26,935 nucleotides of DNA from contig JAYUGC010000131.1 of NCBI GenBank assembly GCA_043767805.1, positions 1-26,935 on the forward strand, given 5' to 3'. Made by a program: the position numbers. Of the stretch, positions 1 through 9,000 are shown piece after piece; the first letter of the stretch is position 1, and each line of letters begins with the position of its first letter. Source of the stretch: Pseudomonadota bacterium. GTDB taxonomy: Bacteria > Bdellovibrionota > FAC87 > UBA2466.

Positions 1-3000
1 GCCCAAAAGATAGTTCGAAGGAATCGCAAAATTCAGATTTTGCCCTTTACGGATCAGCGCAAAGGAGATTCCGATCACCTCGCCGTTCACGTTCAGCACG
101 GGTCCGCCGCTACTCCCTTTCGATATAGGCGCTGAAATCTGCAATACAGACGATTCCTCACTTCCGCGCACGGAGCTGACCAAGCCATCCGTAAAGGTGC
201 CACTCAACCCACTCGGGCTGCCGGCCACGTAGATTTTATCCCCGACGCTTACCTCGTTGCTCGTGGCGACCTTCAACGGTGCCGTTTCAGCATCATCGAC
301 TTCGATAAGGGCAAGGTCGTTGCCCTTATCGAAAGCGATGATATTCGTAATGTCCTTCGTGCCAACTCCGTCGAAAGGCTCGATGCGACCGGACTGAGCA
401 TCTTCAATCACATGATGGTTCGTCACCACCACGTTCCTCATGATGAAGAAGCCAGAGCCGACGACCGTGTCCCCGTCCTTGTTGGTCGTGTAGATCGTGA
501 CCACCGAGGGAAGGGTGCTCGCTGCGATTTCTTTCGCGGTCTTCGCGTAGATTTTCCCAGGCTGAAGGCAAACGAGTGCCATCAGCGCCATTAAGCGCAC
601 GTGCTTCATAGTTATCTCCTGTTAAAGTTAGCCGACTAAGAGGCCAGTTTCCCGGCCGCGTTCTTTGCGAAAGCTCATGCCCGTGCCCAGCGCTCCGGGG
701 TGGAGGCGCTCGTGAATCTCACGGGCGGTGAGCGTTGAGAGGGACTCTGGAAGCAGCGAATGCCGAGCTACGCCCGCGTCCATTTCGGTGAGGAGCACTT
801 GCCCCGACTCCAAGTTGAAAGTCTGCGGTAGAGCGGGCAGCACTTCGAGCCAGCCCCGGTTCTCTTGCGAAACCGTCAAATAAAAAGCGTCGTCTTGATC
901 GACGGGCACGCAAACGATGCCCATCTTCTCGCCGACAAAAGCGCCAGTGTCGCGCTCTTCTTGGGAGGAAAAGCGCAAGACCGCCACTTTCGAGTTCGTT
1001 ACTACCGCACTCGGCTGAGGCCCGAGCCCGATGACGCTACCGACGGTGCCATCGCCCGTTCCCCGGCAAACGATGCGAACGCCGGTAAGCTTTGCGTAAC
1101 TGACCGCGCCGTGGTGCAAAACCTTCGCGCCACTGCGAGACAAAGTGATGATGGCGTCGTACGGCACTTTTGCCATGGGTTTTGCCTGAGGCACCACATA
1201 AGGATCCGCCGTGTAAACGCCGGGGACGTCTGAGAAGATCTCGCACTCACCGGCCCCCAGCATCGACGCCAAGATGACCGCCGACAAATCGGAGCTGTTA
1301 CGACCGAGCATGGTGATTTGCCCGTCCGCGTTCACGGCCTGGCCGCCCGCGACGACCACAACCTTGTGGTTCATGAAGGCCTTCTCCAAAGCGGAGGAGT
1401 CCGTGCCCAGGATAGAAGCCCGCGTGTGCTTAGAGTCCGTGAGAATCCCGACCTGATAGCCCGTGAAATGCGTCGCGGGGATTTTTTCCGCTTCCAAAGC
1501 CGCGCGCATCAAACAAGCCGCGGTCATCTCGCCCGTGGCCAGCAACGAATCGGTCAAAGCCGAAGACATTTCCGGGTTCACGGAAAGCCCGGCCTCTTGG
1601 ATACGCCCCGTAGTTCCCGACATGGCGCTGACCACGACCACCAGCCGATCCGTGTCGGTGAGCAGGCGTGATCCCAAGTAACGCGCGATTTCCCGATAGC
1701 TCTCCATCTTGGGAAACGAAGAGCCGCCAAATTTAAGCACCCGTGTCTTCATACTTACCTCCCGACGACTTTCTCCGCGATTTGAATGGCGTTTAGCGCC
1801 GCTCCCACTCTCAAATTATCCGCGACGACCCAGCTCCAGAAAGCCGTGAGGCTTTGCGGATCGAGGCGAACGCGCCCGACATGCACATGATTGCTGGAGG
1901 ACAGCATCCGAGGCGTCGGGTAGTCGGACGTGGTCTGCGAGTCGTACACGATGATCTCTTCGCCGCTCTTGATGACCTTTAGCAATTCGCCGCGATCGAG
2001 CTTCTGCTTCGTCTCGACGTAAATCGCTTCCGAGTGACCGTTCAAGACGGGCACGCGGACGCAAGTCGCAGTCAGCTTAAAGCCGGGGATACGCAAGATC
2101 TTTGCCGTCTCCTGCACCATCTTCTGCTCCTCCAGGGTGAAACCATTCTCCTGAAACACGTCGACCTGGGGGACGACGTTAAAGGCGAGAGGCTGCGGGA
2201 ACTTCTTCGATTCGAAAGGCGCGGAAGGATCTTTCATGAAACCCGCGATGCCGCGGTTCAACTCTTCCATGCCGGTCAACCCGCCCCCGGAAGCCGCTTG
2301 GTAGGTGCTCACGATGACGCGGTCGATGCCGAAAGCCTTCTCTATGACGTCCAGCAGGCGCACCATCTGAATGGTCGAGCAGTTTGGGTTTGCGACGATG
2401 CCGGACTTCGGGCGGGTCTTCAAAAGATCGCCGTTTACTTGCGGCACGACCAGAGGGCTATCCGGATCCATGCGATGAGCGTTGGTGTTATCGATGACCA
2501 AGGCGCCTTGGCCCGCGGCCCGGCTCGCCCAAATCTTACTCGTGCCGGTTCCGGCCGAGAAGAAGGCGATGTCGGTCTTGGAGAAATCGAAAGTCTCGAG
2601 ATCTTCCACCACGTAGTCTTTGCCGCGGAAGGGAATCTTGGTGCCGGCCGAGCGCTTAGAGGCAACGAGCTTCATTTCCGAGAAAGTGAAGTTACGCTCC
2701 TGCATCAGCGTCATGAGCTCTTTACCGACGGCGCCCGTGGCTCCGACGATGGCGACTCTGGGGTTCATTCCGTTAAGCATTTTTGACTCCTAAAGTTTTG
2801 CGCTCGGCCTTGAAAAGATCCGAGAATAATTGGGTACCGGGCTTCTTCAAGGCCACGTAACTCGAGGCGATGATGAGAAGCCCTCCGAAGACCGTCGGCA
2901 AGGCCACCGCTTCCCGGAAGAACAACACACCGAAGACGATGGTCGAGAGCGTGTAGACGTATTGCAAGATTCCGGCGACGGCCGCCTTAACCGTCTGAAG

Positions 3001-6000: not shown

Positions 6001-9000
6001 TCGCTAAAATTGCCTCGAACAGCGTTAAGGCGAGACTGATGGAAGGGGGAACGAGGACGGCGGATAGCGTTCCGAACAACTCTCTATCGATGAGGATGCC
6101 CGCAAGCGCGAGCTCACCACAGACGCGATCGACGTAATCCCAAGCCTTTAACGACTCGAGGATAGGGACGTCTTTCGCATAGGGCAGGTTGTAACAGATG
6201 CCTCCGCCTTCGAACGAAGTTATCCCGGCCGCCACCGCGGTCTCGAAGAGGAGCCTCGCGTCCGGAGAGCCGTGGCGCACTTCCAAGGGTGCGTCCACGG
6301 ACGCTTCAAGCGCGCGGCCTTTCATCCAGCCGTGATTGACGAGGGGATATCCATTGAGTTGAGAGGGGTCTTTCTTGAGAACTTCTCCTCCCCGCTGAAA
6401 CTGTTTGAGGCGCGTGTAGGAGTCGATGGTGATGGAAAGAATGTCGGGTTGTGCCGTCTTCTCAATGTCCTGGAGTAACTGAACCATGGGCCCGTGCCCG
6501 CCGACACCGCAACGGGGCTGGAACAACAGCTTGCCATTGCGATCTGCCGCGCGAAGCACTTGGGCGACTGTAGGCTTCGTTCTCCGCCGAAGAAACGCAT
6601 TGGTCTCTTCGAACGTCGGTAGAGAGAAACCGGATTCTTGTACTAGTTGTTTTCTTTCCTCTTGCATCAACGACTCCCGGAGGGTCGCTAGAGCAAGGGT
6701 CGTGCCGAAAGATGTTTCGAGGTGTTACGGGAGCTCGCCGCGAGAGACGAGAACGGCTTCACCGGAGATGAAAGTGCGCTCTTCTTCGGGGCGCACGCGA
6801 ACGAATCCGCCGCGCTTGGAAGACTGATACGCGCGCATCTCGGGTTTTTTCAGTTTCTTTTTCCAGTAAGGCCCGAGGAGGCAATGCGCGGCGCCGGTCA
6901 CGGGATCTTCATTCACGCCGATTTTAGGGCCGAAGAAGCGCGAAACGAAATCCGTTTTGCCGGTGCCTTTGGCCGTTACGATTACGGCGCGAGGCTCCAG
7001 AGCTTTCAGCTTTTCGATGTCGGGCGTGAGCAACCGGACTTTGTCTTGATTGCCGATATTGACGAGGAGAAAGCCCGCCGAATTAATGCCCACGTAGCTG
7101 GGAGCTTCGGTGAGACCGAGCGCTTCGCGAAGCCCTTTCGGCTCATCGCAAACCGTCGGCGCGAGGGTCGGAAAATCCAAGGTGATCCACGTGTCGTTCT
7201 TGCTGGCGGTGAGCCGCCCGCTCAGCGTATCGAATTGGAGTTTCTGATTGCCGGGAACGATGCCTTCGCTCCAGAGCACGAAGGCCGAGGCGAGAGTCGC
7301 ATGCCCACAAAGATCGATTTCGATCGTGGGGGTGAACCAGCGCAGGCCCCACGATCCGGCTTCCTTTTTCAGGAAGGCGGTCTCCGAGAGATTCATCTCG
7401 GCGGCGACCTTTTGCATCCACGCATCCGTCCGATTCTCATCGAGAATGACGACGGCGGCGGGGTTTCCGCGGTTGGCTTCCTTGGTAAAGGCATCGACCA
7501 GAAATAGACGGTTCATGGCGTTTCTTTACGGTCTTCTCCGGCTCGATACAAGCCAAATCTCTTCATGATGGAGTGGAGCGTGCTCGGCGATATTCCGAGG
7601 CGCTGCGCCGCCTGGAATTTGTTCTTGGACGACTGAATAATCGTCTCGATGTGCTTTCTCTCTTCGGACTCGTGTTTCGTTTTTAGCTCTGTGAGAGAGA
7701 GGCTCGCCGTGACGGTCTCCGTCGAGAAAAACTTCGCGTCGAGCTGCTCGGGGGTGACCTTATCGTCTGGCGATTCGGTCAAAAGGCGATAGACCGTGTG
7801 CTCGAGCTCTCGCACGTTCCCGGGCCAGTCGTAGGTCTCGAGCTGGCGGACGGTGCGCATCAAAAACGACTTCTTGTTGCCGGTCTCTTCCGCGATTTTG
7901 CGGCAAAAGTGAGCGACCAACGGCTCGATGTCCTCGGGGCGATCTTTCAAGCGCGGTAGACAAAGGCTCAGGACGTTCAAGCGATGATAAAAATCGAGGA
8001 GGAACTCACCGCGATCGGCGCGCGCGCCGAGATCGGGCTTCGCCGCCGCAATCAAACGGAAGCGGACGTCGATCTCTTTCGCTCCACCCACGCGGCGGAT
8101 TTTCTTCTCCTGAAATACGCGCAAAAGTTTCGCTTGAGCCGTTAGGGAAAGCTGATGGATCTCGTCGAAAAAAACGGTCCCGCCGTTCGCGGTCTCGAGG
8201 ATGCCTTTCTTCTCGGCATTGGCTCCCGTGAAGGCACCTTTCTCGTAACCAAATAATTCCGATTCCAAAAGATCCGTACTGCCCTGATACGCGGCGCAGT
8301 TAATCGCAAAGAAGGGACCTTTCTTCGAATCGTGAAGCGCGCGAGCGACGAGTTCTTTACCGGTTCCGGTGTCGCCCAAAATCAAAACGTTTTGATTGTT
8401 CTCTCGGTAGAGCACCGCTTTACGAGCTAGCTCGGCGAGAGATTCGGATCGTCCCACCATGCTGATGCTCGCGATGATTTTTTCCTTCTCGGTCATCGCG
8501 AGATTCGTGTTCAGCGTGCGGTAGGTGTGATCGTACTTAAGGCACCAGTTGCGTACCGTCTTCAAAAACGTTTCGAAGTCGCCTTCCTTTTCGATGAACT
8601 CGACGGCGCCCGCGCGCCAGGTTTTCTGCATGGCGAGGCGAGAGGAATCGCCGGAATATATTAAAACGTACGCTTCCGGGTTCACGCGGCGGATGGCTTC
8701 CGCCGTTTCGGCGCCGTCCATGTCGCGCATCTGGTAATCCACGATGACCAGCGCATATTCCTGCGGGTTCTTACGGACCTTCTCGACGCCCTCCGCGCCA
8801 CTCTGGGCCGCGTGAACGGAGTAGCCGTTTCGCTCTAAGAGGAAACGGGTCGCCTGAAGATTCAGCGGGTCGTCATCGATCAGCAGTAAGCGGTACGCCA
8901 CGTTCAACTCCCTCCCGATCGATGTCGGGAGTGAGATTTATAACATTTTCGCATCGCGTGGCGTTATGGAAATCTGCGAAAGTTCGCAGCGAACCTTCGC

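Follow-up and report, generated by a model that had tools for sequence, protein, structure and literature searches.

A glutamate mutase island with a desaturase-like enzyme and extra aspartate kinase and aspartate-semialdehyde dehydrogenase genes in a Bdellovibrionota genome: a possible route to a branched amino acid

Two enzymes offer precedents for the oxidation of amino acids by desaturase-like proteins: GntB, described as a transmembrane arginine gamma-hydroxylase, and RtxC, described as a dihydrorhizobitoxine desaturase. A DABA aminotransferase encoded on a symbiosis plasmid of R. leguminosarum is described as converting aspartate semialdehyde to unbranched DABA. The window analyzed here, a 26,935-nucleotide stretch from the genome of a sediment-dwelling member of Bdellovibrionota, carries genes for a glutamate mutase (glmE, glmS), a membrane di-iron desaturase-like enzyme (des), an aspartate kinase paralogue (ask) and an aspartate-semialdehyde dehydrogenase (asd). 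ORF calls and Pfam and NCBIfam scans recovered all seven minus-strand genes described in an earlier note, at the same positions, tightly packed and in the same families. Neighboring genes are separated by +2 (ask-asd), -8 (asd-eamA), +14 (eamA-des), -4 (des-glmS), +15 (glmS-glmE) and +54 nt (glmE-phzF). The predicted mutase transcription unit is bigger than the earlier note had it: a gene for an NtrC-type response regulator and sigma-54 activator (7513-8907, minus strand; Response_reg, Sigma54_activat and HTH_8 domains, with GAFTGA in the translation) shares 4 nt with the start of phzF, and a protease gene lies 18 nt downstream of ask, neither of which had been listed.

The catalytic subunit GlmE (5285-6670, minus strand; PF06368, 404.5 bits), for which the ATG at 6667, with GGGAG 7-8 nt upstream, is the likelier start, is the only GlmE in its genome and is 46-60% identical to the GlmE proteins of related clusters. 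When aligned to 6h9e_B, it has equivalents of R66, R100, R149, H150, E171, Y177 and Y181. The B12-binding subunit GlmS (4850-5269, minus strand; PF02310) contains D13-x-H15-x-x-G18 in its translation, and the genome encodes an adenosyltransferase of the PduO type and has 11 B12-binding matches. Both subunits fall slightly short of their NCBIfam equivalog cut-offs (GlmE, 367.6 bits against 390.1; GlmS, as methylaspartate mutase S, 107.5 against 110), which counts against the reading that we prefer. Nevertheless, the claim that this is a genuine glutamate-type B12 mutase forming 3-methylaspartate held up: because GlmE retains every glutamate-binding residue checked, it is well supported, as judged from sequence, that GlmE and GlmS with adenosylcobalamin would rearrange L-glutamate to 3-methylaspartate.

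The product of des (3693-4853, minus strand) matches PF00487 at 38.1 bits (cut-off 29.7), and its His boxes, H95/H99, H132/H136/H137 and H311/H314/H315, are, as had been claimed, invariant or nearly so in 22 of 22 aligned homologues. Its AF2 model is all-helical (pLDDT 90.5), and Foldseek matched this model to AlkB with probabilities of 0.93-0.97; the protein resembles GntB weakly in NCBIfam (57.6 bits against a cut-off of 380). Ferredoxin genes adjoin des-type genes in eight loci and ferredoxin reductase genes in eight, and neighbors across the family include aminotransferases, AzlCD and EamA exporters and ATP-grasp ligases. The His boxes, the AlkB-like fold, the redox and amino-acid gene neighbors and the GntB and RtxC precedents together support a role for Des as an amino-acid-directed oxygenase. 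Des would use O2 to oxidize the methylaspartate skeleton, either hydroxylating or desaturating it at the methyl branch or beside it; we infer both this site and the position of the step in the pathway. A comparison of mutase-linked with unlinked Des proteins revealed no distinguishing residue, which counts against this reading.

The previously reported count of 28 Des-like proteins among 8000 candidates was reproduced, but this figure is too low because it came from a word-indexed search, and the family is not small: when 1.84 billion representatives were searched with a profile, 479 clusters scored at E<=1e-30, and at E<=1e-10 there were 740 hits. A GTDB scan found 86 Des relatives, of which 80 loci were retained, and the conserved trio was borne out, with glmS and glmE on the same strand and within 4 kb of the des-type gene in 57 of the 80; one locus has glmS without glmE, and 22, short contigs among them, have neither. 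The description of the trio as lying inside natural-product clusters holds loosely: ATP-grasp ligases lie near it in 23 of 58 loci, a DABA-decarboxylase-like PLP enzyme in 19 and a class-III aminotransferase in 12, with MFS transporters and ferredoxin/reductase genes also among its partners, whereas some loci lack cluster features. Of 401 genomes sampled from the phylum, the present one among them, three encode Des and four a GlmE above the Pfam cut-off, and the same-genus genome G171 lacks the whole 1-16200 stretch, in line with the patchy, island-like distribution proposed earlier.

Ask and asd are indeed extra copies, as two further Ask genes (contigs C89 and C176) and one further Asd gene (C144) are present in the genome. 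The window Ask (628-1752, minus strand; 374 aa) is an ACT-less paralogue in which Pfam AA_kinase covers residues 2-229 only; its C-terminal 147 aa match no Pfam family, even at E<=10, and it scores under every NCBIfam Ask cut-off. It retains LysC residues K8, S39, A40, T45, E119, R198, S201 and D202 and carries the substitutions F184G, T195M, G199N and G200S. The pocket changes (F184G/A, G199N, G200S) are common to all of the best 120 subfamily members and are not evidence for a methylated substrate, since many rhizobial copies at mutase-free plasmid loci share them. The window Asd (1755-2780, minus strand) shares 37% identity with the housekeeping Asd and 63-64% with the copies in the other two clusters. 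Because it exceeds NCBIfam equivalog cut-offs (417 against 223 and 401 against 324 bits) and retains all catalytic residues checked (R102, N134, C135, Q162, E241, R267 and H274, E. coli numbering), it may be an ordinary Asd. In the proposed pathway, Ask and Asd would phosphorylate the C4 carboxylate and reduce it to a semialdehyde.

The order glmE-glmS-des-asd-ask is kept in three of three Bdellovibrionota genomes, from three families, and the readable side of the locus in one of them, G059, contains glmE-glmS-des-asd-ask-phzF and nothing more. Ask and asd lie beside the des-type gene in two of the 80 GTDB loci, both from Bdellovibrionota, and in none of 55 actinomycete loci having mutase genes were they found within 10 kb of the trio, which counts against action in series with the mutase. 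The claim that only Bdellovibrionota joins Ask/Asd to these genes stands for the whole trio and not for the mutase alone: a plasmid of Mesorhizobium sp. AR07 carries glmS-asd-ask with 4-nt overlaps and, within 9 kb, glmE (51% identical) together with genes for a class-III aminotransferase and an amino-acid ligase, without a desaturase, so the link recurs in a second phylum. S. numidicum has a glmS-asd pair.

The remaining minus-strand genes encode an EamA-family transporter (2773-3678; two Pfam EamA repeats) and a PhzF-family isomerase (6725-7516; PF02567, 221 bits; TIGR00654, 137 against 76 bits) with an S44-E45-T46 motif; the PhzF encoded directly after ask in G059 is 30% identical. The isomerase would move a proton or double bond in the reactive semialdehyde product. 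The divergent plus-strand operon encodes a haem-oxygenase-like di-iron oxidase (HDO; 9369-10139; PF14518, 44.7 against 28.9 bits), an MFS transporter (10123-11289; PF07690), an L-amino-acid-ligase-type ATP-grasp enzyme (11283-12533; ATP-grasp_4), a short-chain dehydrogenase (SDR; 12533-13243; adh_short), a periplasmic binding protein (13230-14420; Peripla_BP_6) and, lastly, a sensor histidine kinase (14417-16198; HisKA and HATPase_c). The best PDB sequence match of HDO is BesC (7twa, E=0.004), and its H85, E93, E94, H104, E159, H192, E196, E198 and H199 are invariant in 20 of 20 homologues; the ATP-grasp enzyme best matches the L-amino acid ligases BL00235 (3vot, E=1e-11) and BacD.

A pattern composed after the matches had been seen identifies sigma-54-type -24/-12 promoters upstream of glmE (CGGCACGACCCTTGCT, 6692-6707, minus strand) and ahead of the plus-strand operon (TGGCACGGTGCGTGCT, 9224-9239, plus strand); an equivalent element, TGGCACAGGTGTTGCT, lies directly upstream of glmE in related locus L001 (8128-8143). 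Between the two operons are four palindromes, TGCGAA-N2-TTCGCA (starting at 8975, 8988, 9074 and 9128; 8975-9141), that are probable binding sites for the activator. All eight strand-matches fall in this intergenic region, against 1.2 expected, and eight was reached in none of 100 shuffles. The activator gene belongs to the minus-strand operon, the kinase and binding-protein genes belong to the plus-strand operon, and rpoN is present in the genome. The binding protein, kinase and activator would turn on both operons via the sigma-54-type promoters, and the divergent operon is probably tied to the mutase operon through this shared regulation.

That the HDO-MFS-ligase-SDR genes form an independent small peptide cluster merely beside the mutase operon is a somewhat doubtful possibility. 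The 80 related loci encode no homologue of HDO or SDR, and none of 77 HDO homologues lies on a contig equal in length to those bearing Des or Ask relatives; clusters combining HDO and ATP-grasp enzymes are described as forming a separate, recognized class that comprises 25 or more types (PMC13185094). The coupling of the activator gene to phzF, with its likely kinase and binding protein ending the plus-strand operon, argues against independence, as do the promoters on both operons flanking one palindrome set, the absence of the entire stretch from G171 and the G256 cluster, which is also flanked by an ATP-grasp/EamA pair and by a binding-protein/kinase pair (kinase 46% identical).

For the mutase operon itself, it is unlikely that two building blocks are made, with Ask/Asd a portable, feedback-free supply of L-aspartate semialdehyde, the mutase and Des separately yielding oxidized 3-methylaspartate, and both products, or homoserine or DABA derivatives, linked by the ATP-grasp ligase or spontaneous imine chemistry. 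The ACT-less Ask subfamily is broad, usually on rhizobial symbiosis plasmids and paired with Asd: the two adjoin on 67 plasmid records (65 from rhizobial genera, two not), mostly without a mutase, and just a few of 113 records run on into glmS. Rhizobial neighbors include ectB-type aminotransferases, ectoine-synthase-like and GNAT genes, or the pair sits between nif and fix genes; such pairs may simply supply aspartate semialdehyde, and the unbranched product of the R. leguminosarum enzyme likewise counts against the series reading. The canonical Asd, the alpha-amino and alpha-carboxylate contacts (E119, R198) kept by Ask, ACT loss consistent with escape from feedback control, and the ligases near the trio also fit two blocks. 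However, no classical consumer of aspartate semialdehyde (DapA, homoserine dehydrogenase or DABA aminotransferase) was found among the cluster proteins scanned in the window or among those scanned in G256 and G059, two loci in which one ORF call at the asd position was missed, and G059 shows no more than the core genes and phzF; the AR07 glmS-asd overlap indicates co-regulation, compatible with two blocks too. More improbable still is a reverse, catabolic or assimilatory route, in which Des would oxidize the methyl of a valine-like amino acid, a dehydrogenase would give the aldehyde, Asd and Ask would run backwards like GAPDH/PGK to NADPH, ATP and 3-methylaspartate, the mutase would return glutamate, and the binding-protein/kinase/sigma-54 system would sense the amino acid. 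The glutamate mutase equilibrium favors glutamate, and 3-methylaspartate is valine with one methyl oxidized to carboxylate. Unlinked Des homologues adjoin AzlC/AzlD (AzlD being, for Pfam, a branched-chain amino-acid transport protein), the window's binding protein weakly matches an NCBIfam branched-chain amino-acid binder, in several loci the gene after des or glmE encodes a Zn-dependent dehydrogenase, and the window has the SDR, stand-alone trios in Mycobacterium-type loci lack export and ligase genes, an ACT-less Ask is compatible with a non-biosynthetic role, and GntB is described as acting on an amino-acid gamma carbon. Against this route, two of three Bdellovibrionota loci show no dehydrogenase gene, and the EamA, MFS and LysE exporters, ligases, decarboxylase and aminotransferase near the trio favor synthesis. 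Multi-step methyl oxidation by the Des family would be no more than an analogy with sterol C4-methyl oxidase, and we know of no precedent for catabolic use of Ask/Asd.

The pathway interpretation therefore stands in part: the mutase, the trio and the extra ask and asd are supported, whereas action of Ask/Asd on a methylaspartate-derived acid is less so, because the Ask subfamily is mostly mutase-free. The order kept in all three Bdellovibrionota genomes, the lack of semialdehyde consumers among the cluster proteins scanned and the AR07 and S. numidicum pairings speak for Ask/Asd acting in series with the mutase. We tentatively favor conversion of glutamate to 3-methylaspartate, followed by oxidation and C4 reduction, to a branched non-proteinogenic amino acid that is exported or ligated, perhaps into a small peptide. 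EamA and/or MFS would export the product, and in this genome the ligase, HDO and SDR would probably, as a weakly supported step, give a small oxidized peptide or alcohol. Because G171 lacks the region, we suggest, with similar caution, that the island was horizontally acquired and is sigma-54-controlled. The island is a variant assembled from known enzyme families.

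ORF calls and family scans bore out the seven genes, and their families, that the earlier note had placed in a minus-strand operon at 628-7516, and extended the unit beyond what was noted by a gene for an NtrC-type sigma-54 activator (7513-8907) at its upstream end. Downstream of the activator, all on the minus strand, lie genes for a PhzF-family isomerase (6725-7516), the glutamate mutase subunits GlmE (5285-6670) and GlmS (4850-5269), an FA_desaturase-like membrane protein that we call Des (3693-4853), an EamA transporter (2773-3678), Asd (1755-2780) and an Ask-like kinase without an ACT domain (628-1752), with spacings, from activator to ask, of -4, +54, +15, -4, +14, -8 and +2 nt. 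Eighteen nt past ask is a minus-strand trypsin-like serine protease gene (1-609), incomplete at the contig end, and no terminator-like site was found at the ask/protease boundary. (A trypsin-family gene, L004:6414-7742, also lies upstream of the Des, GlmS and GlmE genes in Polyangium.) The PhzF protein scored well above its family cut-offs (221 bits against 27, and 137 against 76), and its translation contains E45, the catalytic glutamate, in an S-E-T motif; a phzF gene is present in two of the three Bdellovibrionota loci, the remaining one being cut at a contig end.

The divergent plus-strand operon, defined by the same ORF calls and family scans, comprises six overlapping or abutting genes encoding a haem-oxygenase-like di-iron oxidase (HDO, 9369-10139), an MFS transporter (10123-11289), an ATP-grasp ligase (~11283-12533), an SDR (12533-13243), a periplasmic binding protein (13230-14420) and a histidine kinase (14417-16198). 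HDO has a PF14518-type Pfam score of 44.7 bits (cut-off 28.9) and invariant His and Glu residues, including E196-x-x-H199, from which we infer an iron ligand set; the sole match in a PDB sequence search was BesC (E=0.004). With its di-iron oxidase next to a free-standing L-amino-acid ligase and a transporter gene, the operon is reminiscent of HDO and ATP-grasp peptide clusters such as mangotoxin mboABCDEF, but it has no MboB-type reductase, second ligase or deiminase.

Consensus matches predict a sigma-54 promoter for each operon. The element CGGCACGACCCTTGCT (6692-6707, minus strand), a good -24/-12 match, lies in the 54-nt gap before glmE and is followed by GGGAG and then the glmE start codon, and a perfect TGGCAC-N5-TTGCT occupies the equivalent place before glmE in another Bdellovibrionota locus, L001. 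The second element, TGGCACGGTGCGTGCT (9224-9239, plus strand), is upstream of the HDO operon. The activator carries an AAA+ GAFTGA motif, rpoN is present in the genome and the GG-N10-GC promoter pattern was found. A tight pattern, GGCAC-N6-TGCT, occurs in the window only at these two sites against 0.12 expected, a figure that is only illustrative because the pattern was drawn up post hoc, from the two sites themselves. A loose pattern allowing two mismatches occurs 7 times in the window against 8.7 expected and so shows no enrichment; what is suggestive in these scans is only where the matches fall, together with the tight pattern. Between the operons are four copies of the palindrome TGCGAA-N2-TTCGCA (8 strand matches, 1.2 expected; at least 8 in 0 of 100 shuffles), and none was seen by eye in the L001 intergenic sequence. 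Sigma-70 promoter-like matches were no more frequent than in shuffles, and terminator-like matches exceeded expectation (39 versus 22) but fell inside genes; neither scan gave a match at a gene boundary. Since the activator gene is on the minus-strand operon and the likely kinase and binding-protein genes are on the plus-strand operon, one regulatory circuit probably spans both, and it is mainly for this reason that we treat the two operons as one island. That the HDO operon is instead an independent neighbour of the mutase operon, a separate question from the chemistry, seems to us the less probable arrangement, though a serious one.

The island is rare in its phylum. Of 401 genomes sampled, this one included, three carry Des, each from a different family, and GlmE exceeded its Pfam cut-off in four of the 401. 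In a fourth Bdellovibrionota genome a higher-scoring GlmE (468.6 bits; G296:C1:650138-651409) occurs with no Des match, and its context is possibly different, perhaps catabolic. A genome of the same genus, G171, has no Des and no DNA match to window positions 1-16200 except generic AAA+ similarity; because only two small ORFs are conserved in synteny, the right edge of the island is only roughly set near 16200. Farther right, an 822-aa protein (20128-22596, minus strand) has DUF455 at residues 132-366 as its sole Pfam match, the other 580 residues matching nothing. Two further Ask genes and one further Asd gene lie outside the window, in agreement with the earlier view that ask and asd here are extra copies, and the genome also encodes a PduO-type adenosyltransferase and gave 11 B12-binding matches, which makes a supply of the mutase cofactor plausible. 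A metagenome scan for close relatives returned one short locus, and a sequencing-run listing placed window DNA in 3-4 sediment-metagenome runs, all from one study and one of them perhaps its source, and listed no RNA run with it.

Formation of 3-methylaspartate by GlmE and GlmS is well supported by sequence. GlmE aligned to the Clostridium cochlearium structures with E=4.5e-79, and its alignment to 6h9e_B retains the equivalents of R66, R100, R149, H150, E171, Y177 and Y181, among which we take R66, R100 and R149 to be the carboxylate-binding arginines and E171 the amino-group glutamate. GlmS matches PF02310, and its translation contains the base-off/His-on DxHxxG motif as D13-A-H15-V-V-G18. 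Both subunits narrowly missed the NCBIfam equivalog cut-offs (GlmE, 367.6 against 390.1; GlmS, 107.5 against 110 and 87.4 against 135.8). The pair thus resembles C. cochlearium GlmS/GlmE (EC 5.4.99.1; PDB 6h9e, 1cb7, 1ccw, 1i9c) in its two subunits, DxHxxG motif and the substrate-binding residues checked, and differs in that glmE comes before glmS and no glmL separates them. We considered the fermentative methylaspartate pathway and set it aside, since methylaspartase, mesaconase and citramalate lyase were all absent from the 23 window proteins scanned. Glutamate-mutase-fed natural-product pathways load 3-methylaspartate onto carrier proteins, and among those that our literature search turned up, none has the mutase together with a membrane di-iron enzyme or with Ask/Asd. 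Such pathways, which provide 3-methylaspartate units for macrolactams and lipopeptides, use the mutase biosynthetically and not in fermentation (PMC5785472, PMC10662134, PMC9230918), as would the window operon. The window GlmE falls in one clade with the cluster copies of actinomycetes and Mesorhizobium, to which it is 46-60% identical; its identity to plasmid-borne proteins that carry the annotation methylaspartate mutase E is 38-41%.

Some related loci have unusual mutase gene structures. GlmE and a class-III aminotransferase form one open frame of ~950 aa at L010:11666-14524 (Met_asp_mut_E at 34-420, Aminotran_3 at 531-944) and in eight more Streptomyces loci (L011, L027, L028, L030, L031, L035, L041 and L044), possibly a natural fusion; the two are separate genes in L050. 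In Streptomyces sp. NBC_01511, GlmS and GlmE form a 618-aa open frame (L018:11198-13054) in which Pfam gives the E domain alone (197-582), and upstream of the trio in that locus (L018:4187-7616) are thiamine-diphosphate decarboxylase-like, iron alcohol dehydrogenase, 2-hydroxyacid dehydrogenase and FemAB-like genes, a set that recalls early phosphonate pathways.

Des bears the marks of a membrane di-iron enzyme. Among 22 aligned sequences H95, H99, H132, H136, H311, H314 and H315 are invariant and H137 is at least 90% conserved, and the three His boxes (8 His) are at least 95% conserved in 78 sequences. Its Pfam score is 38.1 bits (gathering score 29.7), and its AF2 model, a confident one (pLDDT 90.5), is all-helical, the long helices at 43-98 and 197-246 being paired. 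Foldseek gave AlkB with probability 0.93-0.97 at a TM of just 0.32-0.38 (best TM 0.48-0.49), and a PDB sequence search gave no real match. To our knowledge, GntB and RtxC are the only characterised relatives of the family. Like Des, both are membrane FA_desaturase-like proteins, and the substrates that they oxidise are free amino acids, not lipids, GntB acting as the guanitoxin L-arginine gamma-hydroxylase and RtxC as the dihydrorhizobitoxine desaturase. The match of Des to the NCBIfam GntB model, over residues 75-239 only, is far below the cut-off (57.6 against 380 bits), placing Des as a distant relative of GntB and not a family member; RtxC is likened by description. A 2025 review puts GntB among the alpha-ketoglutarate-dependent non-haem iron enzymes, and a preprint by authors who claim the guanitoxin pathway work as theirs describes a transmembrane enzyme; because of the latter, and because the GntB model matches the FA_desaturase-like Des, the review's description is probably mistaken.

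The earlier note had described the Des family as small, which it is not (479 representatives at E<=1e-30 and 86 GTDB loci), and had called its association with the mutase conserved, which stands: at 57 of 80 loci Des has glmS and glmE beside it on the same strand. In actinomycetes and Polyangium these genes run Des-GlmS-GlmE, in Bdellovibrionota GlmE-GlmS-Des. Mutase-linked loci also encode a PLP decarboxylase with DABA decarboxylase as its best match (19 loci), class-III aminotransferases (12, sharing a single open frame with GlmE in 9), ATP-grasp ligases (23 of 58), ferredoxin (8) and ferredoxin reductase (8), and MFS transporters and Zn-dependent dehydrogenases recur. Neighbours of unlinked Des genes include aminotransferases, AzlC/AzlD or EamA exporters, PGM1-type ligases and chain-elongation enzymes; in seven mutase-free loci (L003, L055, L062, L069, L076, L079 and L080) DUF2000 lies directly after Des or, in L003, a few genes downstream. 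On a quick Des tree the mutase-linked label takes four changes, in an order left unsure by long branches, and no residues were found that separate linked from unlinked proteins. Together, this neighbour pattern and the precedents of GntB and RtxC support the view that Des oxidises a free amino acid in an O2-dependent reaction.

The cluster copies of Ask (those in the trio-bearing clusters of three Bdellovibrionota genomes) have an amino-acid-kinase fold and keep E119, R198, K8, T45, S201 and D202, of which E119 and R198 contact the alpha-amino group and the alpha-carboxylate of aspartate, and F184 is a direct contact, according to PMC5481828. In all three, F184 is Gly, T195 is Met and G199-G200 are Asn-Ser (loop R-N-S-S-D); at these positions E. 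coli LysC and the housekeeping copies (8 of 8) have F/T/G/G and RGGSD. F184 and the RGGSD loop are thus missing from cluster Ask, family scans found no ACT match, and scores fell below the NCBIfam cut-offs (best 214.6 against 376 bits; TIGR00657, 202.2 against 208.7). We dropped the idea that these changes make room for a C3 substituent, as they are shared, along with the missing ACT domains, by all of the best 120 of 2590 homologues (E<=1e-30), whose named members are mostly Mesorhizobium, Sinorhizobium, Rhizobium and Bradyrhizobium. Asd is canonical by every test made: it scores above the equivalog cut-offs, keeps the catalytic C135/H274 with E241/R267 (roles from PMC5481828) and has three module-specific columns (W84, V202 and Y254).

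Among plasmids, ACT-less ask with asd adjacent was found in 67 records, in contexts that include ectB-asd-ask (S. medicae), an ectoine-synthase-like gene, a GNAT gene, ask and ectB (S. mexicanum) and nifKEN-fdxB-asd-ask-fixNOQP (R. binae). The rhizobial symbiosis-plasmid pairs resemble the window pair in Ask subfamily (~41% identity, full length), Asd paralogue (48-50%) and adjacency; unlike the Bdellovibrionota cluster, with its Des, most rhizobial loci lack a mutase, and the AR07 locus (below) and five other rhizobial loci gave no Des-like match. Taken together, the homologue survey, these plasmid contexts and the canonical Asd mark the Ask/Asd pair as a portable module, and the pocket changes of Ask carry no information particular to this cluster. 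The placement of the pair in Rhizobium binae plasmid p4 (L109 4979-7101), between nifKEN-fdxB and fixNOQP (ccoNOQP), suggests expression in nodules, and its symbiotic role appears to be undescribed. One paper shows that, in pea nodules, a DABA aminotransferase encoded on a symbiosis plasmid of R. leguminosarum converts aspartate semialdehyde to plain DABA.

The earlier note had the trio joined to Ask/Asd in Bdellovibrionota only; the mutase without Des is joined to them in a second phylum as well. The best plasmid match to the window GlmE (51% identity), on a Mesorhizobium sp. AR07 plasmid, lies ~7 kb from an Ask match, in a locus with glmS-asd-ask on one strand with 4-nt overlaps, a divergent L-amino-acid ligase gene, an insertion sequence, a class-III aminotransferase gene and glmE. 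Like the window, AR07 joins asd-ask to the same GlmES clade and an L-amino-acid ligase; unlike it, AR07 has the class-III aminotransferase instead of Des. Between the AR07 GlmE and the Des-linked GlmEs of actinomycetes, identity is 55-58%. S. numidicum has glmS-asd with a broken ask: on its plasmid (L114 9004-10165), ask matches as two pieces in different frames, probably a frameshifted pseudogene.

This second-phylum link raises the odds that the mutase and Ask/Asd act on one scaffold, with glutamate converted to 3-methylaspartate, then to its semialdehyde and, in AR07, transaminated to methyl-DABA. Among the alternatives, a linear path is our tentative preference: GlmE/GlmS would convert glutamate to 3-methylaspartate, Des would oxidise and Ask/Asd would reduce the derived acid, in no set order, and PhzF isomerisation would precede export or ligation. 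A reading with two building blocks still fits the same mutase-Ask/Asd data, and Ask/Asd might merely supply aspartate semialdehyde, which we consider unlikely. Running the chemistry the other way is more doubtful again: Des would oxidise a valine-type methyl, Asd and Ask in reverse would, in Bdellovibrionota, perform an energy-conserving aldehyde oxidation, and the mutase would turn 3-methylaspartate into glutamate. If true, the mutase and di-iron pair would connect branched-chain amino acids to glutamate in a way not recognised before, as a new amino-acid assimilation route switched on through sigma-54 by an amino-acid sensor. In our literature search no paper brought glutamate mutase together with a desaturase-like enzyme, or Ask/Asd together with methylaspartate, and none named 2,4-diamino-3-methylbutanoate, a compound of Lotus nodules; among the papers listed, beta-methyleneaspartate appears solely as a transaminase inhibitor.

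We read the region as a small biosynthetic island for an amino acid or peptide. Known enzyme families account for every part, and its oxidation step is unstudied. Because several hosts are cultured (Streptomyces strains and Mesorhizobium sp. AR07), the chemistry can be tested directly, and the rhizobial link leads one to ask what role the asd-ask pair, so widespread on symbiosis plasmids, plays there. If the linear path is correct, Des would represent a family of membrane enzymes, with at least 479 sequence clusters, that use O2 to tailor free amino acids, and a clade of B12-dependent glutamate mutase would have been combined repeatedly, in Bdellovibrionota, Actinomycetota, Myxococcota and rhizobia, with a small toolkit of Ask/Asd, class-III aminotransferase, DABA-type decarboxylase and L-amino-acid ligase. 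As products one would then expect branched amino acids or dipeptides that are new, from a class in which antimetabolites abound.
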